A stretch of DNA of 64,000 bases from an uncultured Chloroflexia bacterium (lineage in GTDB: Bacteria; Chloroflexota; Limnocylindria; Limnocylindrales; CSP1-4). The first letter of the stretch is position 1. Every line of letters begins with the position of its first letter. The notes beneath the pieces are model-generated. The model had not been told where the DNA came from, ran no database searches, and saw only the letters and a list, made by a program, of their open reading frames with translations. The stretch lies in assembly GCA_963752475.1 (NCBI GenBank), contig CAVVYR010000008.1, positions 416,001 through 480,000 on the forward strand. Reading direction: 5' to 3'. Positions 32,405 to 47,516 of the stretch are shown piece after piece. The translations under genes and the position numbers were made by a program.

Positions 32405-33934
32405 CTAGAACTCGATCAGTGCCACGAGGCCCTGGGCAGCAGCCTCGGTCCACTCCAGGATGGCGGCGGTGACCGGCGGCACGAGGCCGATGACGATGAC
32501 CGCCACGGCGGCCACGATGAGCCCGGCTCGCGTGACCGTGCCGATGCTGACCTCCGGCGCGTCCTCGGCCGGCTTGCGCATGTACATGTAGACCACCACG
32601 CGCAGGTAGTAGAACGCGGCCATGGCGGCGTTGAGCATCATCAACACCGCCAGCAGGGTCACGGGGCCGCCGACCTCAAGGGCCGAGAGCACGACCGTCA
32701 TCTTGGCGAAGAAGCCGGCCAGCGGCGGGATGCCCACCAGCGACAGCAGGAAGACCGTCATCAGCAGCGCCAGCACCGGCGCGCGGTAGCCCAGGCCGGT
32801 GAAGGTGGCGATCTGGCTGGTGATGCCCGGCCGTCGCTGCAGCGCGGCCACGACGGCGAAGGCGCCGAGGTTCATGAAGGCGTAGGCGATCGCGTAGAAG
32901 AGCACGCCCTGCACGCCGGACGCGGCGACCGCCGGGTCCTCGGCGGTGGCGAAGACCACCAGGCCGACCATCATGTAGCCGGTATGGGCGATCGACGAGT
33001 AGGCCAGCATGCGCTTGATGTTGTCCTGGCCCAGTGCGGCCAGGTTGCCCACGGTCATGGTCAGCGCCGCGAGCACGCCCACGACCAGCGCCCACTCACC
33101 GCGCAGCGGCCCGAGGGCTTCCACGAAGATGCGCAGGATCAATGCGAAGGCGGCGATCTTGGGACCCACCGAGAGGTAGCCCGTGACCGGCGTCGGTGAG
33201 CCCTGGTAGGCGTCGGGTGTCCAGTAGTGGAAGGGCACCGCGGCGATCTTGAAGAGCACGCCCACCGCCAGCATCGCCAGGCCCATGGCCAGCGCCAGCG
33301 GTAGCGCCTGGTCGCCGCTCAGCACGCCCTCGAGCTCGGTGGCGATGCCAGCCAGCTGCGTATTGCCGGTGAAGCCCAGCACGAAGGCCAGGCCGAACAG
33401 CAGGATCGCGCTGGAGAACGAGCCCAGCAGGAAGTACTTGATCGCGCCCTCGGTCGAGAGCCCGTCGCGCTTGGCGAAGCCTGCCAGCAGATAGCCTGGC
33501 AGCACCAGCAACTCCAGGCCGATGAAGAGGATCAGCAGGTCCTGACCGCCGGCGATGAGCATGCCGCCCGAGACGGCGAACAGCAGCGTGGCCGTGAACT
33601 CGGGCAGGGGCAGCTTGCGCGGCGTCAGGTAGTCAGGTGCGAAGAGCAGCGTGAGGATGGCGATCGAGATGAGCACCAGGTCAAGCAGCGCCGTCAGCAT
33701 GTCGCGGGTGTAGAGCGCGGGATCGCCGAAGGACGCGGCCTCGGCGAGGGCGCCGATATCCCAGGGCATGGGCCCGATGAGCAACGTCGCGACCAGGGCC
33801 ACCACGAGTCCGCCCAGGCCGAGGCCGAGGATGACGTCGTCGCGCCTGGGCAGGAATAGGTCGACGAGGATGACGAGCAGGGCCAGGGCTACCACCAGCG
33901 CGAAGGGGAGCAGGGTCAGCATCTCGTCACTCAT
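32405..33934 (-). CDS. nuoN: Complex I subunit N
   Basis: EGAIKYFLLG, FKIAAVPFHYWTPDAYQGSPT, KRMLAYSSIAH. Confidence 0.96.
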   Translation of the reverse strand: MSDEMLTLLPFALVVALALLVILVDLFLPRRDDVILGLGLGGLVVALVATLLIGPMPWDIGALAEAASFGDPALYTRDMLTALLDLVLISIAILTLLFAPDYLTPRKLPLPEFTATLLFAVSGGMLIAGGQDLLILFIGLELLVLPGYLLAGFAKRDGLSTEGAIKYFLLGSFSSAILLFGLAFVLGFTGNTQLAGIATELEGVLSGDQALPLALAMGLAMLAVGVLFKIAAVPFHYWTPDAYQGSPTPVTGYLSVGPKIAAFALILRIFVEALGPLRGEWALVVGVLAALTMTVGNLAALGQDNIKRMLAYSSIAHTGYMMVGLVVFATAEDPAVAASGVQGVLFYAIAYAFMNLGAFAVVAALQRRPGITSQIATFTGLGYRAPVLALLMTVFLLSLVGIPPLAGFFAKMTVVLSALEVGGPVTLLAVLMMLNAAMAAFYYLRVVVYMYMRKPAEDAPEVSIGTVTRAGLIVAAVAVIVIGLVPPVTAAILEWTEAAAQGLVALIEF

Positions 33935-35484
33935 CGCAGCAGCCTCGCGGTCGCCTCGGAGACCTCGTCAGCCGCGCTCTCGACGATGGCCAGCACGTCC
34001 TCGACCGGTGCCTGCGTCAGGTCCAGCACCAGCGCCGGGAAGAGGCCCAGCGCCACCGCCAGCAGCACCAGTGGCGCCAGCGTGGCAGCTTCGATGCGGT
34101 CGACGTCGGTGAGCTTGTCACCGAGTGACTTCAGGAAGTCGGTGACGTCGCCCATGATGATGTTCTGGACCATGTACAGCAGATAGACGGCCGCGAAGAT
34201 GATGGTGAAGGCGGCCACGTAGCCGACCCACGGCTCCCAGGTGACGGCGCCGAGGATGACCAGGAACTCGCCCACGAAGCCGGCCAGGCCGGGCAGTCCG
34301 GCTGAGGCCAGGCTGAAGAAGACCATCAGGGTCGCGAACACCGGGACCCGCTGCCCCAGGCCGCCCATCTTGGCGATGGTGCGGTCGTGGGTGCGCTCGT
34401 AGATCACACCCACGAGCAGGAAGAGGGCGCCGGTGATCACACCATGGCCGACCATCTGGAAGATGGCGCCCTGCACGCCCTGCTCGTTGAGCACGAAGAT
34501 GCCCAGGGTCACGAAGCCCATGTGGCTGACCGAGGAGTAGGCGATGAGGCGCTTGAGGTCCGTCTGACGGATGGCCACGATGGCGCCGTAGAGCATGCCC
34601 ACGATCGAGAGCGCGATGATGAAGGGCGCCAGGTCCTGCGTGGCGTCGGGGAAGAGCGGCAGGTTCATGCGGATGAGCCCGTAGCCACCGAGCTTCAGCA
34701 GCACGCCGGCGAGGATGACCGAACCCGCGGTTGGGGCCTCGGTGTGAGCATCGGGCAGCCACGTGTGGACCGGCCACATCGGTACCTTGATGGCGAAGGC
34801 CAGGAAGAAGCCCAGGAAGGCCCAGAACTGGAGCGTGGGATCGAAGCCGGCCTCCACCAGCGTCACGTAGTCGAAGGCACCGGTCCAATCACCGCCGTTC
34901 TGGCCCTGATAGGTGAAGGCCAGCGCGAGGATGGCCACCAGCATCAGCAGCGAGCCGACGAGCGTGTAGATGACGAACTTGATGGTGGCGTAGATGCGGT
35001 TGGCGCCGCCCCAGATGCCGATGATCAGATACATCGGCACGAGCACCACTTCCCAGAAGACGTAGAAGAGGAAGGTGTCGAGCGCGAGGAAGACGCCGAG
35101 CATGCCCACCTCGAGCACGAGGAAGGAGATCATGTACTCCTTCACCCGCGTCTTGATGGGTCCGAACGAGGCCAGGATGCTGATCGAGGTCAGCAGCGTC
35201 GTGAGCAGGATGAGCACCAGGCTGATGCCGTCCACACCGACCTTGTACTGGATGCCGAAGAAGCCGATCCAGTCGACCGCCTGCACCAGCTGGAAGCCTT
35301 CGCGCTCGTTGTCGAAGCTCACCGCCACGAGCAGCGAAAGGGCGAGGGCCACGAGCGAGATAGCGAGAGCACCCCAGCGATGGAGATCCACGCGCTTGTT
35401 GGGCACGAAGAGCAGGATCAGGGCGCCCACCAGCGGCGTGAAGATCAGCAGGGTGAGCCAGTCGAGGCGGTCGAGGAACTCCAT
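33931..35484 (-). CDS. nuoM: Complex I subunit M
   Basis: VDGIS, FYVFWE, HTWLPDAHTEAP, KRLIAYSSVSH, GFVGE. Confidence 0.96.
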   Translation of the reverse strand: MEFLDRLDWLTLLIFTPLVGALILLFVPNKRVDLHRWGALAISLVALALSLLVAVSFDNEREGFQLVQAVDWIGFFGIQYKVGVDGISLVLILLTTLLTSISILASFGPIKTRVKEYMISFLVLEVGMLGVFLALDTFLFYVFWEVVLVPMYLIIGIWGGANRIYATIKFVIYTLVGSLLMLVAILALAFTYQGQNGGDWTGAFDYVTLVEAGFDPTLQFWAFLGFFLAFAIKVPMWPVHTWLPDAHTEAPTAGSVILAGVLLKLGGYGLIRMNLPLFPDATQDLAPFIIALSIVGMLYGAIVAIRQTDLKRLIAYSSVSHMGFVTLGIFVLNEQGVQGAIFQMVGHGVITGALFLLVGVIYERTHDRTIAKMGGLGQRVPVFATLMVFFSLASAGLPGLAGFVGEFLVILGAVTWEPWVGYVAAFTIIFAAVYLLYMVQNIIMGDVTDFLKSLGDKLTDVDRIEAATLAPLVLLAVALGLFPALVLDLTQAPVEDVLAIVESAADEVSEATARLLR

Positions 35485-37541
35485 CAGCGGGCCATCAGGA
35501 TGAAGAGCGTCGCGATGACGACGAGGCCGATGGCGATGCCAAGGGCGTAGTTCTGTACTCGGCCGGTCTGGATCTGCCGTACGTCGTCACCGATACGCTG
35601 GGTGACCGCGCCAACGCCGTTGACCACGCCGTCGATGACCTTCACGTCGAACCACATGACGCCGTTGGCCACGCGTCCACCGATGACGTAGAAGAGGAGG
35701 TGGTTGAGCTCGTCGAAGTACCACTTGTTGAGCGAGCCGGTGTAGAGGAAGCGGCTGACCCGGTTGCGCTCAGCCAGGCTCTCAACGGTCTCGAGGCGGG
35801 CGCGTGTGTTGAAGACGCCGAAGAGCCAGATGGCCGCGCCGATGCCAAGGGCGGCCATGGCCACCGAGATGATCAGCAGCGCGCCGTTCAGGCCGAAGAA
35901 CTCGTACTCCGGGAAGGAGATGCCGAGGATGGCCTCACCGGGGTGGAACACCGGTTCGAGCCACTTCTTGATGGGCGAGGTGCCAAGGAGCGGTCCACCC
36001 GGGTCGAAGGCGACCTTGCCGGCGTCGTTGACGAAGAGCCCGGTGCCGATGATGAGGCCGAGGAAGGTCGTAGGGATGGCCAGCAGCACGAGCGGCCCGA
36101 CCATCGAGGGCGGTGACTCGTGGACCTTGGGCTCGATCTCCGGATCGACCCGACTCTTGCCGTAGAAGGTCAGGCCCATGAGTCGGAACATATAGAAGCC
36201 GGTGAGGGCGGCCACGATGATGCCCACGATGAACACCGGCCACCAGCCAAGGACGAAGGCTTCGTCGAGGATGAGGTCCTTCGAGAAGAAGCCCGCGAAG
36301 AGCGGGATACCGGCGAGCGACAGGGAGCCGAGGAGGAACGTCGCGTGCGTCCACGGGATCCTGCGCCAGAGTCCGCCCATCTTGGTCATGTCCTGCTCTT
36401 CGTGCATCGCGTGGATGACCGAGCCGGAGCCGAGGAAGAGCAGGCCCTTGGTGAAGCCGTGGGCCATGAGGTGGAAGATCGCCGCCAGCCAGGCACCCAC
36501 GCCCAGGGCCATGAACATGTAGCCCAGCTGGCTGAGGGTGGAGTAGGCCAGAACGCGCTTGATGTCCTTCTGGGTCAGCGCGATGGTCGCGGCCAGGACC
36601 GCGGTGAAGGTGCCCAGGAGAGCCACCAGCAGCAGGGCCTCGGGCGCTGAGGCGAAGATGGGCGTGGTGCGGGCGATGAAGTAGACGCCGGCGTTGACCA
36701 TGGTGGCCGCATGGATGAGCGCGGAGACCGGCGTGGGGCCCTCCATCGCATCGGGCAGCCAGACATGGAAGGGGAACTGAGCGCTCTTGCCGGCCGCGCC
36801 GACGAAGAGGAGCACGGCCACGGTGTTGCGAACGAGCGGGTCGGCCGACGCGGTATTCCACGCCCCGAAGGACTCGAAGATGTCCATCGTGCCGGTGATG
36901 AGGAAGACGCCGATGATGCCGACGAGGAAGCCGTGGTCGGCGACGCGGTTGACAAGGAACGCCTTCTTCGAAGCCAGCGCCGGTGCGCGCTTCGTGTACC
37001 AGAAGCCGATCAGCAGGTAGGACGAGAGGCCCACCAGCTCCCACGCGCCGAAGACGACCAGGTAGCTGCTCGCGAGCACCAGCAGGAGCATCGAGAACAT
37101 GAACAGGTTGAGGTAGGCGAAGAAGCGCCACTTCGACGGGTCGTGCTCCATGTAGCCGATGCTGTAGATGTGCACCAGTGCGCCGATCCAGGTGACCACG
37201 ATGAGCATCAGCGCCGAGAGGTTGTCGAGCACGAACCCGAACTCGACCTGCAGATCGCCCACGCCGACCCAGGTGTAGAACATGTGCGCGATGCCGTGCT
37301 CGCCGTAGGCACCGGAGAGTTGCTGGAAGGCGAGGTACGTGGCCACCAGCGTCGCAGCCACGATGGCGCCCACCGAGATGACCCACGGCCGCGAGAGGCG
37401 CCGGCCGACGAGACCCGTGAGCAGGAAGCCGGCCAGCGGCAGGCCCAGCACGAGCAGGATGAGGAACGTCTCGAGCTCGCCTGCGGGCCCGGGCGGGATG
37501 AAGAGCTCGCCGCCCTCCTCCGCGTTGAAGATCAGGTCCAT
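35484..37541 (-). CDS. nuoL: Complex I subunit L
   Basis: GKSAQFP..WLPDAMEGPTPVSALIHAATMV, QTGRVQNY. Confidence 0.96.
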   Translation of the reverse strand: MDLIFNAEEGGELFIPPGPAGELETFLILLVLGLPLAGFLLTGLVGRRLSRPWVISVGAIVAATLVATYLAFQQLSGAYGEHGIAHMFYTWVGVGDLQVEFGFVLDNLSALMLIVVTWIGALVHIYSIGYMEHDPSKWRFFAYLNLFMFSMLLLVLASSYLVVFGAWELVGLSSYLLIGFWYTKRAPALASKKAFLVNRVADHGFLVGIIGVFLITGTMDIFESFGAWNTASADPLVRNTVAVLLFVGAAGKSAQFPFHVWLPDAMEGPTPVSALIHAATMVNAGVYFIARTTPIFASAPEALLLVALLGTFTAVLAATIALTQKDIKRVLAYSTLSQLGYMFMALGVGAWLAAIFHLMAHGFTKGLLFLGSGSVIHAMHEEQDMTKMGGLWRRIPWTHATFLLGSLSLAGIPLFAGFFSKDLILDEAFVLGWWPVFIVGIIVAALTGFYMFRLMGLTFYGKSRVDPEIEPKVHESPPSMVGPLVLLAIPTTFLGLIIGTGLFVNDAGKVAFDPGGPLLGTSPIKKWLEPVFHPGEAILGISFPEYEFFGLNGALLIISVAMAALGIGAAIWLFGVFNTRARLETVESLAERNRVSRFLYTGSLNKWYFDELNHLLFYVIGGRVANGVMWFDVKVIDGVVNGVGAVTQRIGDDVRQIQTGRVQNYALGIAIGLVVIATLFILMAR

Positions 37542-37547
37542 CCCCGC

Positions 37548-37859
37548 CTACTCCTTCATCGACGCGTACTCGTCGACGAGCGGCGTCCTGCGGTTGCGGT
37601 AGATGGCGATGACGATGGCCAGGCCCACGGTGGCCTCGCCGGCGGCGACGGCGATGACGAACAGCGCGATGCTCGAGGCGTGGGCCGCGAAGTCGGGCGT
37701 GAAGGCGCCGAAGGCGATGATGGCCAGGTTGACCGAGTTGAGCATGATCTCGATGGACATGAGCATGGCGATGGCGTTGCGCTTGGCCAGGAAGCCGAAG
37801 GCGCCGATGCCGAAGAGCATGACCGCCAGGATGAGGTAGGCCTCGAGCGACTGGCTCAT
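37548..37859 (-). CDS. nuoK: Complex I subunit K
   Basis: MSIEIMLN, AAGEATVGLA. Confidence 0.95.
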   Translation of the reverse strand: MSQSLEAYLILAVMLFGIGAFGFLAKRNAIAMLMSIEIMLNSVNLAIIAFGAFTPDFAAHASSIALFVIAVAAGEATVGLAIVIAIYRNRRTPLVDEYASMKE

Positions 37860-38437
37860 GCGCTCTCATCCTCATCGGGCACGGGCCTGCCGGGCTGGTT
37901 GGTCTGCGGCATGTCGTCGTCGCGCTTGGCCACGTAGAGCCCGCCGATCACGCCCGCGAGCAGGAGCACGCCCAGTGCCAGGAAGGCGAACATGTACTCC
38001 TCGTAGACCGTCAGCGCGATCTCGCGCGCCTCGGCCACCTGCACCGTGCTGGTCGCGTCCCACTCGGTGAGCATCACCGACGTGATCATCAGGAAGACGA
38101 GCACGATGGCGGCGAGGGCGCCGGCCCACCATTGGCGGTTGAAGACGAGCTTGGCCGGCCCGCGCTTGGAGTGCGTGATCATCACCGCGAAGAGGATGAG
38201 CACGGCCACGGCCCCGACATACGTGAGTACCTGGCTGATGGCCAGGAAGGCGCTGCCGAGCATGCCGTAGATGCCTGCGAGGGCGGCGAAGGACAGGATG
38301 AGCCAGAGCGCCGACCGGATGATGTCCCGGCCGAGCACGACGAGCAGCGCGGAGCCCAGTGTCACGCCGGCGAGCAGCAGGAAGACGAAGTCATCCCAGC
38401 GCCAGTCGAGATACGGGACCGTCCCCGGTAGCTCCAC
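37856..38437 (-). CDS. nuoJ: Complex I subunit J
   Basis: SALWL, QVLTYVGAVAVLILF. Confidence 0.93.
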   Translation of the reverse strand: MELPGTVPYLDWRWDDFVFLLLAGVTLGSALLVVLGRDIIRSALWLILSFAALAGIYGMLGSAFLAISQVLTYVGAVAVLILFAVMITHSKRGPAKLVFNRQWWAGALAAIVLVFLMITSVMLTEWDATSTVQVAEAREIALTVYEEYMFAFLALGVLLLAGVIGGLYVAKRDDDMPQTNQPGRPVPDEDESA

Positions 38438-38460
38438 TCCCTCTCCGAACCCCCTGTCGA

Positions 38461-41070
38461 CTACTTGTGGTGGATGGCGCTGCCACCGCCGGCACCGCCG
38501 GAGGCGTCCCTGGCGCCGTTGGTAGATCCATTCGTCCCGTTCACGCCGTCCCCGGCGAGGCCTTGCGGCAGCATGGGCAGCAGCCGCTCGTGCGGGATGT
38601 CGCGGCCGTCGGCCTGGGCTCGGCTGAGCCAGTCACGCTCGCGTCGGATGTAGCTGATCTCCGAGTCGAACTCCATCGCGGCCATGGCGATGAGGTCGAT
38701 CATCGGTTCTTCTCGCGACTCGTGCGCGAGCTCGAAGTCGGGACCGCAGCGGAGCGCGTCGTAAGGACATGCATCGACACAGATGCCGCACAGGATGCAG
38801 CGGGACTCATCCACCTCGTACTTCTCCAGCACGCGCGGCTTGGGCATGAGCGCGCCCGTCGGGCACGTCTCGGCGCAGCGGCCGCAGGAGACGCATGGCG
38901 TGGTGTTGAGGCTCATGTCCAGCGGCGTCGTCACGAGCGTGTCGAAGCCGGTGCGCATGAAGTCGTAGCAGGCTGCTCCCACGACCTCGCGGCAGACGTT
39001 GGCGCAACGGCCGCAGTCGATGCAGCGCGAGGGCTCGCGCAGGATGAAGGCGTGGCTGTCGTCGCGGATGTAGTCGTGGTTGAGGCCGGTGAAGCGGTTC
39101 TCGCTGACGCTGCGGAAGGAGAGGCCGGTGCGCTTGGGCTCGAGGGTCTGCAGGGTGGTGCCGTACTCGATGCCCTGGCGGCGCAGGTCACAGTACCCGA
39201 TGGCCTCGCAGGTGCACTGCAGGCAGCGGGCCGACTCGGACATGGCCTCTTCCGCCGTGTAGGGGATCTCGTACTCGATGTAGGAGTCGTTGCGCTCCTC
39301 GGGCGCCATCGACTTCAGCCGGATGCGCGGCTCCTTGACCTCGCCGGTGTAGGGCACGATCGACAGGAACTCCGGCTGCGGCTCGGCCAGGACCTGGCGC
39401 GTGCGGATCTCCTCGAGGTCCTGGCCCTGCAGGTAGGCGTCGATGGCGTAGCTCGCCCGGCGACCCTCAGCGATGGCCTCCACGACCGTGGCGGCGCCGG
39501 TGCGCACGTCGCCGGCACCGAAGACGCCCGCCCGCCCGGTGCCGAAGGTGACCGCGTCGGCGTCCAGCCGCCAGCGCTTGGTCTTCTCGATGCCCTCCGC
39601 GCCGGTCTCGAGCCAGTCCAGCTGGGGGCCCTGGCCGATGGCCAACAGCACGCGATCGCAGTCGATGATGAACTCGGTGCCCTCGACCGGCTGCGGGCGT
39701 CGGCGGCCAGAGGCGTCCGGCTCGCCCAGCGCCATGCGCTGGAACTCCACGCCGGTGACCTTGTCGTTCTCGTCGGTCACCACCCGGGTGGGCGAGGCTT
39801 GGAAGATCGCGCGCGCACCCTCCTCCAGCATCTCGTGGACCTCGTCCGCGGCGGGCATGTCCTTCATGTCGCGGCGGTAGACGAGGGTGGTCTCGGTGCA
39901 GCCCTGGCGGACCGAGGTGCGCGAGCAGTCCATGGAGGTGAAGCCGCCGCCGATGACCACGACGCGCTTGCCCTTGTGGTCGGGATAGGGCAGGCCCAGC
40001 GTGGCCACGCGCAGGTACTCCAGGCCGTCGATGACGCCGTCGGCGTCCTCGCCGGGGATACCCAGCTTGTTCGTGTCGTAGCAGCCGATGGCTACGAGCA
40101 CCGCGTCGTAGCCCTGGTTCTGCAGGTCGTCGATGGTGAAGTCCTCGCCCAGGGCCACGCCCGTGACGAGCTTGGCGCCGAGGTCCCACACCGCCTGGTA
40201 CTCGGCTGCCAGGATGCGCTCCTTGGGCAGGCGGTACTCGGGGATGCCGTAGCGCAGCATGCCGCCCGCATCGGGATCGCGTTCGTAGACCGTGACCTCG
40301 TGGCCGCTGAGTGAGAGGTAGTAGGCCGCGGACATGCCCGAAGGGCCGGAGCCGATGACGGCCACGCGCTTGCCGGTGGCGGGCTGCTGGTCGAAGGGCA
40401 GAGGTGCCTTGGCGCCGTCAGCCTGGGCCTTGAGCACCTGGTCGCCGGCGTAGCGGTGGCTGTCGCGGATGGCGATGGCCTCTTCCACCTCGTCGCGGCG
40501 GCAGTGGTCCTCGCATGGAGCCGGACAGACACGCCCGAGCACCGAGGGGAATGGGATCGTGCGCTTGAAGACGCGCGCCGACTCGACGAAGTCGCCCTCG
40601 GTGTTGGCCTTCAGGAAGCCCGGGATGTCGATGTGGCTGGGGCACTTGTTCTGGCACGGCGGCAGGCAGTAGGCGTTGTGGTCGCTGAAGATGAGCTCAA
40701 GGTTCGTCTTGCGGATCTCGCGCAGCCTCGGGGTCTGGGTCTGCACGACCATGCCCTCCTCGGCCTCACGCGAGCAGGAGATCGGCGGCGTGTCCTCGCC
40801 CTCGACCTCGACCACGCACATGCGGCAGGCTCCGAAGCCGGGCAGCTTGGGCTCGTAGCAGAGCGTGGGCACCTCGATGCCGGCATCGCGGCAGACGTCG
40901 AGGATGGTCTGGCCCTCGCGGGCCTGCAACGTGCGGCCGTCGATCTCGAGCTCGAAGGCAGCAGAGGATTGCCTTCGCTGCGGCGACTGGGTCGTGAGCA
41001 GGCGCTCAGCGGCCTCGTCGGGCGACGGGTCGGACGGCTGGTGGATGATCTCGGGGAGCGTGTCGGTCAT
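38461..41070 (-). CDS. Fusion: NuoG-like N-terminal Fe-S region + GltD-like FAD/NAD(P)H oxidoreductase + C-terminal half of NuoI
   Basis: PTLC..GACRMC..SC (2Fe-2S); PPCQNKCP, GRVCPAPCEDHC; GSGPSG, GGGFTSMD, YRR; CIDCGRC..C, CVSCGRC..CP; YEVDESRCILCGICVDACP..GPDFELA. Confidence 0.85.
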   Translation of the reverse strand: MTDTLPEIIHQPSDPSPDEAAERLLTTQSPQRRQSSAAFELEIDGRTLQAREGQTILDVCRDAGIEVPTLCYEPKLPGFGACRMCVVEVEGEDTPPISCSREAEEGMVVQTQTPRLREIRKTNLELIFSDHNAYCLPPCQNKCPSHIDIPGFLKANTEGDFVESARVFKRTIPFPSVLGRVCPAPCEDHCRRDEVEEAIAIRDSHRYAGDQVLKAQADGAKAPLPFDQQPATGKRVAVIGSGPSGMSAAYYLSLSGHEVTVYERDPDAGGMLRYGIPEYRLPKERILAAEYQAVWDLGAKLVTGVALGEDFTIDDLQNQGYDAVLVAIGCYDTNKLGIPGEDADGVIDGLEYLRVATLGLPYPDHKGKRVVVIGGGFTSMDCSRTSVRQGCTETTLVYRRDMKDMPAADEVHEMLEEGARAIFQASPTRVVTDENDKVTGVEFQRMALGEPDASGRRRPQPVEGTEFIIDCDRVLLAIGQGPQLDWLETGAEGIEKTKRWRLDADAVTFGTGRAGVFGAGDVRTGAATVVEAIAEGRRASYAIDAYLQGQDLEEIRTRQVLAEPQPEFLSIVPYTGEVKEPRIRLKSMAPEERNDSYIEYEIPYTAEEAMSESARCLQCTCEAIGYCDLRRQGIEYGTTLQTLEPKRTGLSFRSVSENRFTGLNHDYIRDDSHAFILREPSRCIDCGRCANVCREVVGAACYDFMRTGFDTLVTTPLDMSLNTTPCVSCGRCAETCPTGALMPKPRVLEKYEVDESRCILCGICVDACPYDALRCGPDFELAHESREEPMIDLIAMAAMEFDSEISYIRRERDWLSRAQADGRDIPHERLLPMLPQGLAGDGVNGTNGSTNGARDASGGAGGGSAIHHK

Positions 41071-42389
41071 GAAGCCACGGCACCAACTGTGCGGGAGGGT
41101 TGGCAGACACCGGCGGGACATTCACCGCGCTCGGCGTGGGCATCTAGTTCAGGCGCGAAGTATCGCATCACCGACAGCAGTGGGTTGCCGGCGTCGGCTT
41201 CGAGCCCGGAGAGGGCCGCGGCACGCATGTCGGCCGCGAGCGCGCGCATCAGCTCCTGGTCGCTGGGCCGAGTGTGGCCGCTGCAGAGGGCCGCGCCCAG
41301 TTCCGCGAGGCGGCGGATGCCGATGCGATCGGGGATGGTCTTGCCGCTGGCGTTGTCGCTCAGGAAGCGAGTCATGAGTGTGGCCAGGTCGACGAGACAG
41401 ACCTTGTCATCGAGGGCCATGAGCGTGCTCGAGCCGCCCAGTGCGCCAGCCTCGCGCAGGGCCTCGTAGCGCAGCGGGGTGTGGAGCGCGCCCGGCGGCA
41501 GGAAGCCGCCGGTGGGACCGCCCACGAGCACGGCCTTGAGGTTGCCCTTGGTACCGCCGCCGGGGCCGTCCACGATCTCCTTCAGCGTGGCGCCGAAGGG
41601 GACCTCGGCGATACCCGGCCGCTTCACGGAGCCACCCAGCTGCAGCAGCGTGGTTCCCGGGCTTTCCGCGTCAACCAGCGAGCTGAAGGCGCCGGCGCCG
41701 TTGGCCACGATCCAGGGCACGGCCGCGAGGGTCTTGACGTTGTTGATGACGGTGGGCTTGCCCCACAGGCCCTTGCGCGACGGGAACGGCGGCCGCTGAT
41801 CGGGCTGCGCGCGCTGGCCCTCCAACGCTCGCAGCAGCACGGTCTCCTCGCCGACCATGAAGCTGCCCGTCAGCTCGCGCACCTCGACCTCGAGGCTGGG
41901 CCCGTCGGCAGAGCGGCCGATGTAGCCGGCTGCAACGGCCTCGTCGATGGCCGCGTCGAGGCGCTCGGCCGCGACGGGTGCCGACGATGAGACGGCGATG
42001 GTGGCCTGCTCGGCACCGACGGCCCAGGCTGCGATGGCCACGCCCTCGACGACGAGGTGCGGGTCCCGCTCCATGAGCACGCGGTCAAGCTGGGCACCCG
42101 GGTCGGCCTCGAAGCCGTTGGCCACGACGTAACGCACCGGGTCGGGCTGCGAGACGCAGTCGCGCCACTTGGCGCCTGTCGGATATCCGGCTCCGCCCAG
42201 GCCGCGCAGGCCGGATTCGGTGATGGTGTGGACGACGGCCTCGGGCGAGAGCTGCTCCGTCGCGCGCTTCCAGGCACTCCAGGCTCCGCCGGCCTCGGCC
42301 ATGGCCAGGTCCTCGACCTCTCCGTCGGCGGCTCGCGCGGTCAGTACCTGCGGCCAGTCCTTGGCTCCCTGCAGGATGGGCAGGCTCAT
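41067..42389 (-). CDS. NuoF/HydB-like protein lacking the N3 cluster cysteines
   Basis: SGLRGLGGAGYPTG.KW, EADPG, GEET, GLWGKPTVINNV, GGPTGG; ASGKTIPDR in place of SCGxCxPCR. Confidence 0.88.
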   Translation of the reverse strand: MSLPILQGAKDWPQVLTARAADGEVEDLAMAEAGGAWSAWKRATEQLSPEAVVHTITESGLRGLGGAGYPTGAKWRDCVSQPDPVRYVVANGFEADPGAQLDRVLMERDPHLVVEGVAIAAWAVGAEQATIAVSSSAPVAAERLDAAIDEAVAAGYIGRSADGPSLEVEVRELTGSFMVGEETVLLRALEGQRAQPDQRPPFPSRKGLWGKPTVINNVKTLAAVPWIVANGAGAFSSLVDAESPGTTLLQLGGSVKRPGIAEVPFGATLKEIVDGPGGGTKGNLKAVLVGGPTGGFLPPGALHTPLRYEALREAGALGGSSTLMALDDKVCLVDLATLMTRFLSDNASGKTIPDRIGIRRLAELGAALCSGHTRPSDQELMRALAADMRAAALSGLEADAGNPLLSVMRYFAPELDAHAERGECPAGVCQPSRTVGAVAS

Positions 42390-43225
42390 GCCGCCTCCCC
42401 CTGGGGCACGTTGGCGCGCAGGGCCGCGGCGATCGTGGCCGCGTCATCCGGGCTCGACTTGGGCAGCGGTTCGCCGTCGACCTCCACGTAGGCGCTGTCC
42501 TGGGATGCGCCGCCGCACGAGGTGGTGGCGAGGCGCACGGCACCGTCGGGGCTCACGCCACCGATATCGGTGGCGAGGTGCTCGCGGAAGGCCGCCAGTA
42601 CGCGGCCGCCGCCCAGCAGCGTGCAGTTCGTGCAGCGGCAGACGCGGACCACATGGCCCACGGGCTGCTCGAAGTGGAGGTGCGGGTACGACGTGGCCAT
42701 GCCGTACAGCGAGGCGTAGTCGGCGCCGGTCTGGTGGGCGATGTGCTGCAGCGCGGCCACCGGCAGGTGGCCGTAGGCGCCCTGCACCTGCTCGAGCATC
42801 GGCAGCGCGTTGCTCGGCTTGTAGGCACCGGCGCTGAGGATCTCGTCGACGGGGCCCAGGTCGATGGTCTCGAAGGGGTCGAAGGTGCGATCGGGGACCG
42901 GCCGGCCGGAGCGGCGCAGGGCCGACTCCTCACGGCGCTCGGCGTACTGCTCGGAGGCGCCCCAGTGCACGTGGTACCGGTCGCGCGTGTCCACGCCACC
43001 CATATCGATGCACTCGATGGGACAGGCCTGCGCGCACTGGAAGCAGGTCTCGCACTTGAGCGTGCCGGCCTCGTCGTAGACCAGGATCAGCCGACCGCGG
43101 TGCTTCGGGCTGATGGGGTTCTGCTCTTCGGGGTAGCGCACCGTCAGGTTGGGGCGGAAGACCTGCTTGATGGAGAAGGCCATGCCCTTGATGATGGCCA
43201 GGCCGGGGATGCGGTCGGTCCTCAC
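42386..43225 (-). CDS. Fusion: N-terminal half of NuoI + NuoE-like domain
   Basis: TVRYPEE..HRG, CETCFQCAQACP (one motif only), then L..VQ..YGHLP, ATSY, CRCTNC, CGGAS; GTG overlaps the nuoH stop; AAGGAG RBS. Confidence 0.85.
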   Translation of the reverse strand: MRTDRIPGLAIIKGMAFSIKQVFRPNLTVRYPEEQNPISPKHRGRLILVYDEAGTLKCETCFQCAQACPIECIDMGGVDTRDRYHVHWGASEQYAERREESALRRSGRPVPDRTFDPFETIDLGPVDEILSAGAYKPSNALPMLEQVQGAYGHLPVAALQHIAHQTGADYASLYGMATSYPHLHFEQPVGHVVRVCRCTNCTLLGGGRVLAAFREHLATDIGGVSPDGAVRLATTSCGGASQDSAYVEVDGEPLPKSSPDDAATIAAALRANVPQGEAA

Positions 43226-44619
43226 GACAGGTACTCCTTGACCACGATGATGGCGCCGGCGGTGACCATCAGGTTCAGCAGTGCGGCCGGCATCAGCCAC
43301 TTCCAGGCGAAGTTCATCATCTGGTCGATGCGCACGCGGGGGTAGGTGGCGCGCATGAGCACGAACAGCGCGACCAGCGCGAAGGACTTGCCGAAGAAGA
43401 CGAGGATGCCGAGCAGAGCCTCGAAGCTGAAGAGCGCCCAGGTGGTGATGCCGCCCATGACGATGAGGTTGGCCAGGACGAAGCCGACGACGAGCGACTT
43501 GATCGCGCCCCAGTCGGACTTGAGCATCCAGATGAGGCCGCCCAGCGCCAGCCACAGCACGGCCGGGATAAGGAGCGGGACGGCCAGCAGCCACGGACCG
43601 AGCTGACCCGGATCGACGTCGCTGAGCACGACCGGCGTGGCGACCCCGAAGAACTCGAGGATGGGGTCGATATGGATGCCGTGGTGGTAGCCGCCCAGGA
43701 AGAGCGTGACCGTCAGGGCCGAGAGGATGAAGACGTTGACGTACTCGGCGAAGAAGAAGAAGCCGAAGCGCATGCCGCTGTATTCGGTGGCGAAGCCGGC
43801 CACGAGCTCGGAGTCGGCCTCCGTGTAGTCGAAGGGTGTGCGGCCCGCTTCAGCGGTGGCGGCGATGAAGAAGATGATCAGCGCGAGGGGCTGCTGGAAG
43901 GCGTACCAGTTGACGAACCAGCCGCCCTGGTTCTCGACGATGGTGCCAAGGTTGAGCGTGCCCGCGAGCAGGACCACGCCGAAGGCGCCAAGGATGAGCG
44001 GCAGCTCGTAGCTGACGACCGCGGCTGCGGCTCGGATACCGCCGAGCAGCGAGTACTTGTTGTAGCTCGAGAGGCCGGCCATCATCAGGCCGACCACGCC
44101 GATGCCCGAAGCGGCGAAGAAGTAGAGCAGCCCCAGCTCCATGTAGTAGCCGGCCATGCCCGGCGCGAAGGGGATGACCATCAGCGTCATGACCGACGCG
44201 AGGAAGGTCACCGCTGGTGCGAGCGTGAAGACCGGCACGTCCACGCCGCGCGGGGTGTAGTCCTCCTTCGAGAGCACCTTGAGGCCGGCCATCAGCGAGG
44301 CCAGCGCGCCCCACGGGCCAGTGCGGTCGGGACCGACGCGCAAGTTCATCTGCGCGATGATCTTGAGCTCCATGTAGATGATCACGAAGGCCGCCGGCAC
44401 CGTGAAGAGCAGGACGCCGGTGGCCGCAGCGAAGAAGCGCAGGATCTCGATGTTGGCCTCGCCGGCGTCGACGATCCACTCCACGGCTGAGGGGCCGAGG
44501 CCGGTGACCCAGAGCAGGAAGAAGCCGATCGCGCCTGCCAGCACCAGGGCCAGCAGGGCAAGGACGATCTTGCCCAAGGTGGTCACGCCCGCGGGTGCCG
44601 GGCTGGCGGTGGCGCTCAC
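43222..44619 (-). CDS. nuoH: Complex I subunit H (extended)
   Basis: RVGPD, SYNKYSLLGG.R, SYE, RTPFD..EADSELVAGF.TEYSG, PRVRIDQ. Confidence 0.95.
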   Translation of the reverse strand: MSATASPAPAGVTTLGKIVLALLALVLAGAIGFFLLWVTGLGPSAVEWIVDAGEANIEILRFFAAATGVLLFTVPAAFVIIYMELKIIAQMNLRVGPDRTGPWGALASLMAGLKVLSKEDYTPRGVDVPVFTLAPAVTFLASVMTLMVIPFAPGMAGYYMELGLLYFFAASGIGVVGLMMAGLSSYNKYSLLGGIRAAAAVVSYELPLILGAFGVVLLAGTLNLGTIVENQGGWFVNWYAFQQPLALIIFFIAATAEAGRTPFDYTEADSELVAGFATEYSGMRFGFFFFAEYVNVFILSALTVTLFLGGYHHGIHIDPILEFFGVATPVVLSDVDPGQLGPWLLAVPLLIPAVLWLALGGLIWMLKSDWGAIKSLVVGFVLANLIVMGGITTWALFSFEALLGILVFFGKSFALVALFVLMRATYPRVRIDQMMNFAWKWLMPAALLNLMVTAGAIIVVKEYLS

Positions 44620-45839
44620 TTGTCGATCCCGCCCATGATCGGGTCAAGGCTGGCCATGATGGCCATGATGTCGGCGAGAACGTGACCCTTGGAGAGCGGG
44701 CCCACGGCCTGCAGGTTGAAGAACGAGGGATCGTGGATGCGGAAGCGGAACGGCTGGTCGGAGCCGTCGCTGACCGCGTAGGCGGCATATTGGCCGCGGG
44801 GTGACTCGAGCGCTGCGAAAGCACGGTTCGGCGGGATGCGCAGCAGGCGCGGCAGCTTGGCCATCACCGGCCCGTCGGGCATCTCGTGGAGCACCTGGTC
44901 GATGATGCGGATCGACTGCTTGATCTCGTCGATGTGCAGCAGGTAGCGCGCATAGGAGTCGCCATCGTTGCGCGTGGGGATATCGAACTCGAGCTCGGGA
45001 TAGACGCTGTACGGATGCGCGCGGCGGACGTCGTAGGGCACGCCCGAGGCTCGCAGGGGCGGGCCGGTCATGTTGTAGCGCAGGGCCATCTCGCGGTCGA
45101 CCACGCCGAGCCCCTTCGTGCGGTTCACGAAGATCTCGTTCTCGTTCATGAGCGTGGCCTGATCGTCGATGCGTGCGGCAGCGTGCCCCATCCAGTCGCC
45201 GAGGCGGCTGAGGAACTCGTGGTTGAGATCGCCGTTGACACCACCGATGCGCATGTAGTTGAAGAGCAGCTTCTGGCCGGTCAGCGCCGCCAGCATCTCC
45301 ACGATCTCGTCGCGCTCGGCGAAGCCGTAGAGGATGGGCGTGAGGCCGCCCAGGTCCAGCGCCAGCCAGCCGATGAAGGTGGCGTGGCTGCTGATGCGGT
45401 TGAGCTCCCAGGCGAGCACGCGGATGTACTCGGCGCGCCGCGGCACCTCGAGATCGAGCAGGCGCTCGGCGGACAGCACCGGCAGCGACTCACTGAACAT
45501 CGAAGCGATGTACTCGAGCGGGTCGGTGTTGCTGATGGCGTGGTGCCAGTCACCGTGCTCGCAGATCTTCTCCACGCCGCGGTGGAGGTAGCCCAGCACC
45601 GGGTCGATGTCGACGATCCTCTCGCCGTCGATCTTCATGACCACGCGCAACACGCCGTGGGTGGAGGGGTGCTGAGGGCCCAGGTTCAGGAACATCTCGC
45701 CGTCGTCGAGCTGGTAGAACTCGGCCTCGCGCTCGGTACGCGGGGTCAGCGGCGGGATGGCGTCGTAGATGGTGCCCGGCGTCTGGACCATGATCTCGGG
45801 ATCGTCGAGGCTGCGCATCTGCTCGCGGTCGGTGGTCAT
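44616..45839 (-). CDS. nuoD: Complex I subunit D
   Basis: NLGPQHPSTHGVLR, GYLHRGVEK, ESPRG; no NiFe CxxC motifs. Confidence 0.96.
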   Translation of the reverse strand: MTTDREQMRSLDDPEIMVQTPGTIYDAIPPLTPRTEREAEFYQLDDGEMFLNLGPQHPSTHGVLRVVMKIDGERIVDIDPVLGYLHRGVEKICEHGDWHHAISNTDPLEYIASMFSESLPVLSAERLLDLEVPRRAEYIRVLAWELNRISSHATFIGWLALDLGGLTPILYGFAERDEIVEMLAALTGQKLLFNYMRIGGVNGDLNHEFLSRLGDWMGHAAARIDDQATLMNENEIFVNRTKGLGVVDREMALRYNMTGPPLRASGVPYDVRRAHPYSVYPELEFDIPTRNDGDSYARYLLHIDEIKQSIRIIDQVLHEMPDGPVMAKLPRLLRIPPNRAFAALESPRGQYAAYAVSDGSDQPFRFRIHDPSFFNLQAVGPLSKGHVLADIMAIMASLDPIMGGIDK

Positions 45840-46468
45840 GCCGGCTCCTCGCCGCTCTCGACCGCATCGGTCTCGTCGGCCGAGCCTGCGGCCACGGCCA
45901 GCAGCTTGCCATCCGCGCCCAGCCGCGCGCCGGCACCTGCGCTGGTCCGGATCACGGGGTTCTCGCGGTTCTCGGCCGGGGCCACGGGCGTCTCGATGTG
46001 GCGGATGCCCTCGCCCGGAGCACGCGAGGCGTCGTCAGGCATGGCGAAGTCCTTGCGCAGGGGGAAGGCCAGGTAGTCGGGCGGCATGTAGATCCGGCGC
46101 AGGTCGCGGTTGCCCTCGAACTCGATGCCGAACATGTCATAGGCCTCGCGCTCGCCCCACTCGGCACCAGGCCAGAGCTGGGTGACCGAGGGCAGGCGCG
46201 GATCTTCACGCGAGAGGCCGTCGGCGATGACCCGGACCCAGTCCTCCGAGAGCGGGCTCCAGAGGTGGTACACGACCTGCATGGTCACGCCGGTGTCGAC
46301 GCCGCAGATGTCGGCCATCAGCTCGAAACGCAGATCGCCGTCCTCGCGCAGCGTGCGCATGACGGCCGTGAGGTCCGCGGGACGGACGACCAGCTCGATG
46401 GTGTCGCCCATGACCTCCGCAGGCACGACGGTCCGATCAGCGAGGCGATCGTCGATGAGGGCGAGCAT
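45836..46468 (-). CDS. nuoC: Complex I subunit C (start uncertain)
   Basis: VVYHL, EREAYDMFGIEF, FPLRKDF. Confidence 0.93.
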   Translation of the reverse strand: MLALIDDRLADRTVVPAEVMGDTIELVVRPADLTAVMRTLREDGDLRFELMADICGVDTGVTMQVVYHLWSPLSEDWVRVIADGLSREDPRLPSVTQLWPGAEWGEREAYDMFGIEFEGNRDLRRIYMPPDYLAFPLRKDFAMPDDASRAPGEGIRHIETPVAPAENRENPVIRTSAGAGARLGADGKLLAVAAGSADETDAVESGEEPA

Positions 46469-46491
46469 GCGCGTATCCGTGGCGGGCCTCC

Positions 46492-47166
46492 CTAGACGCC
46501 TTCCGGCACGGTGGGGCCGACCTTGCGGTCCTTCCACTGACCGCGGCGTTCGAGCACGAGTTGCTGCAGCTTGAGCATCCCGTAGATGAGGCCCTCCGGC
46601 CGCGGGGGGCAGCCGGGGACGTAGACGTCGACGGGCATGATGCGATCGATGCCCTCGACGGTGGAGTAGGAACGCTTGTAGCGGCCGCCCGAACAGGTGC
46701 AGTCACCCATGGCCACGCACCACTTGGGCTCGGGCATCTGCTCCCACAGGCGGATGAGCGGGTCGGCCATCTTGGTCGTGAGCGTGCCGGCCACGATGAG
46801 CACGTCCGCCTGCCGTGGCGAGGCACGGAAGGGGAACATGTTGAAGCGGTCCATGTCGTTGACCGGGGTGGCCGAGGACATCATCTCCATGGCGCAGCAG
46901 GCCAGGCCGGAAAGGAGCGGCCAGAGGCTGTTCGCGCGGAGGTAGTCGAACAGCAGGTCCGCGGTCGTGGGCACCACGTCGAGTGCGCCCCAGCGGCCGT
47001 TGTCGCCCTTCTCGCCGAACTCCAGTTCCTTGAGGTGATCGACGTGGGCGGCCTGCCCGCCGCTGTAGGCCTCTGGGTCGGCTGGCTTCCAGGTCGTGTT
47101 GGGCAGGACGATCGCACCGCGCTTGTCAGCGGTCGTGGCCTCCTTGCCGGTCTTCTTCACTTCCAC
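46492..47166 (-). CDS. nuoB: Complex I subunit B
   Basis: GLACCAMEM, ASPRQAD, MGDC, VDVYVPGCPPRPE. Confidence 0.96.
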   Translation of the reverse strand: MEVKKTGKEATTADKRGAIVLPNTTWKPADPEAYSGGQAAHVDHLKELEFGEKGDNGRWGALDVVPTTADLLFDYLRANSLWPLLSGLACCAMEMMSSATPVNDMDRFNMFPFRASPRQADVLIVAGTLTTKMADPLIRLWEQMPEPKWCVAMGDCTCSGGRYKRSYSTVEGIDRIMPVDVYVPGCPPRPEGLIYGMLKLQQLVLERRGQWKDRKVGPTVPEGV

Positions 47167-47516
47167 GTCAGCAGGCCCTTCCTGGCGGCATACAGCACCG
47201 AGATCTCCATGATGCCGATGAACAGGAGCATGCCCATGAAGCCGCCGGTCAGCACGTCATCGAAAACGAGCGCCCACAGCGCGATGAAGAGGACTTCGAC
47301 GTCGAAGGCCACGAACAGCAGGGCGTAGAGGTAGAACGAGAGACCGAAGCGACCGCGGGTGTCGCCATAGGTGTCGATGCCCGACTCGTAGGGCAGACCC
47401 TTGTGCTCATCGCCCTTGTGCCGGTGCGAGATGAACCAGGCCAGTCCGATCGTCAGGAAGACGAAACTGAACCCCGCGATCACGAAGCCGAGCACGTACC
47501 AGAGCGGAGCGGTCAA
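47157..47516 (-). CDS. nuoA: Complex I subunit A
   Basis: PYESG, FYLYALLFVAFDVE, KGLLTW. Confidence 0.94.
   Translation of the reverse strand: MTAPLWYVLGFVIAGFSFVFLTIGLAWFISHRHKGDEHKGLPYESGIDTYGDTRGRFGLSFYLYALLFVAFDVEVLFIALWALVFDDVLTGGFMGMLLFIGIMEISVLYAARKGLLTWK

Follow-up and report, generated by a model that had tools for sequence, protein, structure and literature searches.

In the prevailing view complex I arose by the joining of modules, and NuoI is treated as one of its indivisible core subunits; to our knowledge, few natural intermediates or alternative N-modules of the enzyme are known. In its 11-subunit relatives (cyanobacterial NDH-1, Fpo with FpoF, Campylobacter-type Nuo), as far as the parts of the literature consulted describe them, the NADH module is exchanged and the Q and P modules are retained, as at the locus described here, and we know of none with a split NuoI or a module of the Stn type introduced below. 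In canonical complex I, such as Nqo1-14 of Thermus thermophilus (PDB 4hea/2fug), the genes for NuoE, NuoF and NuoG are placed between those for NuoD and NuoH. Here we analyse a nuo operon in a 64,000-nucleotide stretch of DNA (the window; GenBank assembly GCA_963752475.1, contig CAVVYR010000008.1, positions 416,001 to 480,000) from an uncultured Chloroflexia bacterium, in which NuoI sequence is distributed over two chains and a three-gene module lies between nuoH and nuoJ.

The module is homologous to the soluble Stn/NfnABC transhydrogenases of the Bfu family (PDB 8oh5, 9n5u, 9bov; PMC7483475, PMC10482914, PMC12018979), which, in the parts of these papers considered here, likewise consist of three subunits encoded in the same order. 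Their layout has been put as 'GltD integrated into NuoG' (PMC7483475, PMC10482914), and the motifs HxxxCxxxCxxxCP and CxxCxC are described for Stn (PMC7483475). In Stn, electrons from the NADPH-FAD site of the GltD domain are reported to run along a linear Fe-S path as far as the FMN subunit; the clusters on the FdhF-like branch are described as a dead end, and StnB has extra cluster domains (PMC10482914). The bifurcation site of the Bfu family needs FMN together with a [4Fe-4S] and a [2Fe-2S] cluster (PMC12018979). The nearest published statement concerns Mbx-like operons of Thermotoga, in which a GltD-related flavoprotein substitutes for NuoI (PMC4758237). By this description, through which alone the two were compared, a GltD-type NAD(P)H flavoprotein is placed on a complex-I-like Q-module at the NuoI position in both cases, whereas the Thermotoga enzyme is of the Mbx/Mrp type, NuoI is substituted and not split, NuoE/NuoF-like genes are absent, and a role in NAD(P)+ reduction is proposed. 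In the part of the literature searched, neither a split NuoI nor a Stn-type module in complex I was found to be described, supplementary material lying outside its scope; an earlier note on this DNA, a first reading of the sequence, had likewise known of none.

NuoI sequence on two chains

The source genome is a metagenome-assembled genome (MAG) of 4.25 Mb, with a completeness of 88.8% and a contamination of 5.8%. Its nuo operon (G+C content of the region ~68%) lies on the minus strand in the order nuoA-B-C-D-H, P0001, P0002, P0003, nuoJ-K-L-M-N. Between the end of nuoH at 43222 and the start of nuoJ at 38437 there are three open reading frames (ORFs), each joined to its preceding gene by a 4-base start/stop overlap: P0001 (43225-42386, 279 residues), P0002 (42389-41067, 440 residues) and P0003 (41070-38461, 869 residues). 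P0001 combines the N-terminal half of NuoI with a NuoE-like domain, P0002 is NuoF-like, and P0003 comprises a 2Fe-2S domain, a GltD-like flavoprotein, a 2x[4Fe-4S] domain and the C-terminal half of NuoI. The start of P0001, a GTG at 43225, is backed by conserved N-terminal residues in a 46-sequence alignment (A1). The coordinates and overlaps given in the earlier note are hence confirmed, and ORF and profile scans agree with it that no intact nuoI is located between nuoH and nuoJ.

The two halves match complementary parts of the NuoI model TIGR01971, which has 121 positions. Positions 1-66 are matched by P0001 residues 14-80 (42986..43186, 50.4 bits), which include the first CxxCxxCxxxCP motif (C58, C61, C64, C68), and positions 71-117 by P0003 residues 746-792 (38695..38835, 52.6 bits), which include the second (C758, C761, C764, C768); the two matches tile the model without overlap. 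Thus P0001 begins NuoI-like and turns NuoE-like (residues 127-269, PF01257), as had been noticed from the sequence, and the missing second half is found at the C-terminus of P0003, whose gene directly precedes nuoJ. Neither chain contains both motifs with a score above the cut-off of 113.05 bits, the N-terminal half reaching 50.4-53.2 bits and the C-terminal half 46-52.6 bits. The alternative that the C-terminal motif fits generic ferredoxins better was considered for the last 130 residues of P0003 alone: NuoI models rank top in NCBIfam, with an E-value of 2e-12 versus 6.9e-6 for a plain ferredoxin model. Among PDB chains, the best single stretches matching the C-terminal stretch of P0003 belong to NuoI/TYKY chains (49-54 bits), and polyferredoxins outrank these only via the sum of eight weak repeats.

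The cluster ligands of both halves are conserved, the four Cys of the N-terminal half in 86/86 sequences and those of the C-terminal half in 62 of 63. Residues 71-112 of P0001, behind the first NuoI motif, are nearly invariant in alignment A1, and many nearly invariant columns are seen in the linker to the NuoE-like domain (residues 81-126, 42848..42985), which suggests that this stretch forms an interface. In 2x[4Fe-4S] ferredoxin folds, each cluster is ligated by three Cys of one motif and one Cys of the other. Homology to StnC and HydA implies that the first and second Cys motifs in the C-terminal region of P0003 form a pair; one unpaired NuoI motif is then left on each chain, which argues for a NuoI domain built from two chains, with N6a and N6b presumably ligated across P0001 and P0003. 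We regard a functional two-chain NuoI as very likely. Pairing of the second and third motifs of P0003 as one ferredoxin domain (Pfam Fer4_7, 726-772) was judged less likely, because PF22117 matches motifs one and two, which can also be aligned with the 2x[4Fe-4S] domain of 9bov_A. Co-folding of P0003 residues 670-835 (alignment A2, four 4Fe-4S clusters) with P0001 residues 1-125 (A1) gave scores of 0.22 and 0.18 against a mark of 0.32; this run had no controls and counts neither way. Behind the NuoI half, P0003 ends in a tail (residues 793-869, 38464-38694). Gly and Asn are enriched in the final ~45 residues, which show little conservation among relatives.

An intact nuoI elsewhere, which would have to serve the complex in place of the two halves, was found neither in this genome nor in four relatives of the same class that are 91-97% complete (G354, G362, G370, G086). 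The source genome yields 10 matches to TIGR01971, none of them over the cut-off. The best two, at 51.6 and 46 bits, are the two halves, and weak matches besides these are 2x[4Fe-4S] domains inside frames of 546-1293 residues. With the same search, four genomes of other classes yield intact NuoI at 133-158 bits. A search of the source genome for a second NuoD found only the operon copy.

The three-gene module and its operon

P0003 closely follows the StnC-type chains. Its residues 41-767 align to 9bov_A (E 2.3e-166), to NfnA (9n5u_A, E 1.2e-146) and to StnC (8oh5_C, E 4.7e-145), with 37-46% identity over about 730 residues. The chain starts with a 2Fe-2S domain of the NuoG/HydA type (residues 38-113, 40732..40959; PF13510, E 9e-21; C71, C82, C85, C99) and a His/Cys motif, followed by a GltD-type domain (residues 135-550, 39421..40668; TIGR01318, 317 bits over residues 137-547; PF14691, PF07992), CxxCxC, a 2x[4Fe-4S] domain of the NuoG/HydA type (residues 676-741, 38848..39045; PF22117) and the NuoI half. 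All elements of a StnC-type chain are present, that is the 2Fe-2S domain, the GltD insertion between HxxxCxxxCxxxCP and CxxCxC, and the 2x[4Fe-4S] domain. The GltD-type domain is complete: it has its two 4Fe-4S sites and the FAD site, and its NAD(P)H site contains a YRR motif; this motif (Y398, R399, R400) and the glycines of the FAD site are invariant in 46 sequences. As a stand-alone GltD, P0003 scores below the cut-offs (NF009454, 551 versus 916 bits; TIGR01318, 317 versus 483 bits), and no gltB context was seen within the operon. The Fe-S Cys and His residues outside the NuoI half, including the eight Cys of the 2x[4Fe-4S] domain, are conserved in 63/63 sequences.

The NuoI half occupies the place of the FdhF-like domain of StnC. 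No Fdh-alpha match was found in P0003, whereas 7 of 10 scanned short representative hits have one. For the nearest non-orthologous relatives in a library of 1.84 billion proteins, mostly 1000-1260 residues long, the match ends at about residue 770. P0003 is also the best conserved of the three chains, with 73-95% identity across families f1/f2 versus 46-86% for P0002. Of the 'E-F-G-like module' read earlier from the sequence, the three genes between the NuoI halves stand, but they are not a plain E-F-G set: by their PDB matches they are Stn/NfnABC-like with a GltD-type NADPH flavoprotein domain, which that reading had missed.

P0002 (41067..42389) was best aligned to the B chains of 9bov, 9n5u and 8oh5 and to HydB (7q4w_B). 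Its 440 residues cover only the core region of these 584-602-residue chains, that is the NuoF core, and the extra cluster domains described for StnB (in the part of PMC10482914 considered) are absent. The FMN loops are present, although the match to the NuoF model TIGR01959 (327.4 bits) stays below the cut-off of 558.65. All four ligands of the [4Fe-4S] cluster N3 are replaced (S348, T351, D354, S394), a loss that had likewise been missed in the first reading. This STDS pattern is seen in 2 of 78 NuoF-like sequences, that of the window and that of L021, the relative nearest to it. CTCC is found in 58, CCCC in 11 (including f4 and CSP1-4), CSCC in four and CACC in two, and the one remaining sequence, with another pattern, is likely a broken gene.

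The NuoE-like domain of P0001 (residues 127-269, 42419..42847) is a thioredoxin-type 2Fe-2S domain that matches PF01257 over its cut-off (82.9 bits, E 2.6e-23) and TIGR01958 below it (60.5 versus 142.4 bits); its best PDB match is StnA (8oh5_A). Its Cys set, C196, C198, C201 and C237, consists of three Cys of the canonical Cx4C...Cx3C set and the extra, conserved C198, while the fourth canonical position is Ser here and Ser or variable in the relatives. Of 86 sequences, 81 have C196, C198 and C201, and 75 have C237. The Fe-S half of the domain is missing in three genera of f1 and in f4.

Compared with Stn/NfnABC, the locus thus shares the StnC-type chain with its GltD insertion. It differs by the NuoI half in place of the FdhF-like C-terminal domain, by a B subunit reduced to a bare NuoF core without the extra Fe-S/zinc domains and without N3, by an A subunit that carries the other NuoI half, and by the placement of the genes inside a nuo operon. 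Compared with canonical complex I, genes A, B, C, D, H and J-N form one operon in both, and NuoI-, NuoE-, NuoF- and NuoG-type sequence is all present. Here, however, NuoI is on two chains, the genes for E, F and G follow H and precede J, the NuoG-like chain contains the GltD flavoprotein insertion but no molybdopterin-like domain, and NuoF of this species no longer has its N3 ligands.

All ten remaining subunits were matched in NCBIfam, with B, D, K, L, M and N above the curated cut-offs. Upstream of the module on the minus strand are nuoA (47157..47516; NuoA models, E 5e-20), nuoB for the carrier of cluster N2 (46492..47166; TIGR01957, 209.8 bits, residues 64-204), nuoC (45836..46537; TIGR01961, 109 bits), nuoD (44616..45839; NF004739, 414.9 bits) and nuoH (43222..44619; NuoH models, E 1e-89 in two matched stretches). 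Downstream, on the same strand, follow nuoJ (37856..38437; NuoJ models, E 4e-27), nuoK (37548..37859; NF004320, 102 bits), nuoL (35484..37541; NF005141, 689.6 bits), nuoM (33931..35484; TIGR01972, 614 bits) and nuoN (32405..33934; TIGR01770, 413 bits). Read by eye in the translations against general motif definitions, NuoD appears to have end motifs of the NuoD type and NuoB to show the CC...C...CP pattern. Stretches unmatched by the models are an N-terminal extension of ~60 residues in NuoB, a tail of ~65 residues in NuoC, and an insert after about residue 320 of NuoH, which at 465 residues is longer than its models.

Another joining of the same nucleotide modules was seen elsewhere in the genome. 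On contig C4, at ~244.3-248.2 kb (L121: 332-1021, 901-4173), a 229-residue NuoE-like 2Fe-2S protein is followed by a 1090-residue protein in which a NuoF-type FMN/4Fe-4S unit is fused to a GltD-type flavoprotein, and the pair looks soluble. Three NuoF paralogs besides P0002 are present in the genome.

Occurrence in Limnocylindria and other Chloroflexota

Relatives of P0001 were collected in a scan of one genome per species, which gave 466 loci. Of these, 80 were kept, whose titles read Candidatus Limnocylindrales/Limnocylindria, CSP1-4 or uncultured Chloroflexia/Chloroflexota, apart from two with Acidobacteriota-type titles. The gene order of the window recurs in 79 of the 80, as far as the contigs reach, and the three-gene module sits between the NuoI halves at every locus long enough to show it. 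The same junctions are shared by 80 independent assemblies, which include isolate genomes and a chromosome record of 2.4 Mb; chance or the misassembly considered in the earlier note is thereby excluded. Contigs from Logan add cover by relatives from other studies; these are short, 88-99% alike, and none spans the whole stretch. Single contigs bridge the P0002/P0003 junction (run X3, DNA, record 21, 40979-41180, two differences), the nuoH/P0001 junction (run X19, RNA library, record 16, 43152-43302) and the P0003/nuoJ junction (run X17, RNA library, record 1, 38300-38739); the contigs of RNA libraries may stem from DNA and are not evidence of transcription.

In a sample of 400 other Chloroflexota genomes, P0001 as a query (E<=1e-30) matched 43 of the 45 from class Limnocylindria and none of the 355 from other classes. 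The two class genomes without a match belong to family f4 and contain both NuoI halves, about 4 kb apart, so that the split is present in all 45. The f4 set is dispersed: nuoB and nuoD are followed by the counterparts of P0001, P0002 and P0003, nuoH lies elsewhere, and there is a single NuoD and a single NuoH. A soluble enzyme of the NiFe-hydrogenase type was considered for this cluster and for those of Ktedonobacteria, and was rejected for f4, as the end motifs of its NuoD-like protein, read by eye, are of the NuoD and not the NiFe type, and one NuoH is found elsewhere in each f4 genome. In the streamlined genomes of family f2 (~1.1 Mb) the P0001 fusion is retained in 16/16 genomes of one search and 4/4 of another. 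The split-NuoI enzyme appears to be the only complex I found in Limnocylindria, a class that, according to the parts of genome studies considered, is abundant in freshwater and found in soil and sediment too. Two irregularities were seen among the loci. A 5.5-kb contig of a Candidatus Limnocylindrales MAG (L068) has nuoA, nuoC and nuoH followed by the three module genes, without nuoB and nuoD in that stretch. Module genes are in two or three frame-shifted pieces, through long-read errors or real breaks, in L023, L024, L083, L088, L089, G015 and G022.

The initial picture of a split confined to Limnocylindria was rejected after searches within families and with P0142, an 816-residue representative that is 43% identical to P0003 and likewise ends in the C-terminal half of NuoI. 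P0142 finds matches running through the NuoI motif in 36 of the 355 genomes of other classes, from families f9, f19, f24 and f28; five more matches there are partial or ordinary StnC-like proteins. The class-only picture was therefore an artefact of sensitivity, as P0001 at E<=1e-30 had missed the distant carriers, and the architecture is not peculiar to the source genome. In the 36 genomes, the split set is a second, dispersed set beside canonical complex I. Family f24 is Ktedonobacteria: the protein of genome G151 is identical to an entry of Thermogemmatispora carboxidivorans, with close relatives under the names Ktedonobacter, Dictyobacter and Tengunoibacter. In G151, G082 and G106 (loci L130-L132, L134, L136, L137), nuoB is followed, between unrelated flanking genes, by the N-terminal NuoI half fused to a truncated NuoE, by nuoF and by the NuoG-type chain with the C-terminal NuoI half; a separate cluster holds nuoA-C-D-H. 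These genomes also encode an intact NuoI (133-158 bits), within a 14-gene operon of the canonical kind. In G250, nuoA-B-C-D-H and the three module genes stand in one row adjoining a canonical nuoABCD. No nuoJ-N was seen beside the second sets of these four genomes. All four have CCCC at N3 and retain all ligands of the P0003 type. In another genome of the Ktedonobacteria family (G070, contig C38, 36565-41391), two copies of the StnC::NuoI-C gene are adjacent.

Four subunits encoded in the window are closer to the second set of G151 than to its canonical set, with identities of 54% versus 42% for NuoB, 43% versus 36% for NuoD, 41% versus 32% for NuoA and 40% versus 37% for NuoH. In an unrooted NuoD tree (17 rows, with one canonical NuoD on a long branch and the short L133 fragment dropped), f4 groups with the second sets at a support of 95/92; no order of events was drawn from it. 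The earlier note had spoken of a module inserted into nuoI. This fits the gene order in Limnocylindria; in the other classes a nuoB-led cluster, apart from nuoH and nuoJ, holds the same fused genes, and insertion into nuoI is one possible order of events. On the whole, the observation of the earlier note is confirmed, and its interpretation is correct for the most part but incomplete. The family would be a complex I variant widespread in Chloroflexota and, as far as found, not described before.

Electron entry and proposed function

The locus is probably best explained as encoding the organism's only respiratory complex I, a distinct Chloroflexota type with a Stn-derived input arm that is joined on through a split NuoI. 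In this proposal, built on sequence comparison, the NuoEFG input would be replaced by a module descended from a soluble NAD(P)H enzyme of the Stn/NfnABC (Bfu) family. NuoI would form the joint between this module and the quinone module, its first half contributed by the NuoE-like chain P0001 and its second half by the StnC-like chain P0003; the halves would assemble as one 2x[4Fe-4S] domain with N6a and N6b held by Cys of both chains. NAD(P)H, most likely NADPH, would reduce the FAD of the GltD-type domain, and the electrons would pass over the Fe-S clusters of P0003 to N6a/N6b, on to N2 in NuoB and to quinone at NuoD/NuoH, with NuoL, NuoM and NuoN pumping protons. That the Stn-derived module serves as the electron input is likely in our view. 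The ligands of N3 and of the NuoE-like domain decay while P0003 is the most conserved chain, which indicates that the GltD-type site is the constant point of electron entry. As cluster N3 is lost, P0002 of this species is unlikely to be an electron entry; it may have a structural or nucleotide-binding role and probably feeds no electrons. NADH may act as a further input in most relatives, where three or four N3 Cys remain. Flavin-based electron bifurcation with ferredoxin is unlikely for this species, as the [4Fe-4S] cluster next to FMN, which the Bfu site needs (according to the part of PMC12018979 considered), is lost. Whether NADPH rather than NADH is the main donor in this species appears to us evenly balanced.

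Several observations weigh against this proposal. Across the 78 sequences P0002 shows well-conserved FMN loops and a well-conserved GEET motif, and most relatives retain three or four N3 Cys; the NuoF route may be the ancestral or main input of the family. The Cys set of the NuoE-like domain is not the canonical one and several lineages have the domain in truncated form, which makes its role uncertain; the proposal also does not explain how this domain, fused to one NuoI half, would reach the NuoF-like subunit. NADPH specificity is read solely from the YRR motif shared with the Stn/Nfn chains. Finally, given the completeness of the source MAG, an intact nuoI could be located in unassembled DNA, for this genome alone.

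In an alternative explanation, NADH entering through the NuoF-like FMN is the physiological input and the GltD-type domain is an NADPH side door or a transhydrogenase exit. The conserved FMN loops are in agreement with this, as are the complete N3 sets in 11 of the 78 sequences and in the 4/4 genomes of other classes, and a single Fe-S chain connects GltD-FAD and FMN in Stn (PMC10482914, in the part considered). Such a route fits less well, however, with the window and L021, where none of the four N3 ligands is Cys in an otherwise intact operon, with Thr at the second ligand position in 58 of 78 sequences, with P0002 being the least conserved of the three chains, and with the absence of the Fe-S half of the NuoE-like domain from several lineages; overall, we consider it unlikely. 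Complex I is reversible in principle, and the proton-motive force could drive electrons from quinol to NADP+ via the GltD-type domain, providing NADPH for biosynthesis. The NADP(H)-type YRR motif would suit this direction, and in Ktedonobacteria the canonical complex I beside the split set would permit a division of labour. As the sole complex I found in Limnocylindria, with one NuoD and no other NuoI, the enzyme is explained more simply by forward respiration, which makes the reverse mode improbable.

It might also be argued that the split is non-functional, through misassembly, a decaying operon or halves that do not pair, with the role of NuoI filled by another ferredoxin-like protein. The source genome is an incomplete MAG and does encode other 2x[4Fe-4S] domains, those with weak TIGR01971 matches in the long frames mentioned above. 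Against this stand the open reading frames, the recurrence of the junctions in 80 independent assemblies, the conserved cluster ligands of both halves and the retention of the arrangement in 1.1-Mb streamlined genomes. Because of this conservation the explanation appears largely refuted, and we regard it as highly improbable.

Returning to the Stn-derived arm on a split NuoI, a wider proposal can be made, if only tentatively and with somewhat less than even confidence. It would be a second type of complex I in Chloroflexota, with an arm derived from Stn/NfnABC and a two-polypeptide N6a/N6b domain, acting as a proton-pumping NADPH (or dual NADH/NADPH):quinone oxidoreductase and as the sole complex I of Limnocylindria; elsewhere, the head without J-N would share the canonical pump module or be non-pumping.

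Current annotations mask these chains as 'NADH:ubiquinone oxidoreductase subunit E', 'FAD-dependent oxidoreductase' and 'formate dehydrogenase major subunit', and automated surveys would count the carrier genomes as lacking NuoI. Since cultured Ktedonobacteria (Thermogemmatispora, Ktedonobacter, Dictyobacter, Tengunoibacter) carry the split set as well, biochemistry and cryo-EM are within reach now. If the proposal is true, a core Fe-S subunit of complex I would be workable as two chains, a soluble enzyme of a bifurcation family would have been recruited as the input arm of complex I, and NADPH may feed a proton-pumping respiratory chain directly.

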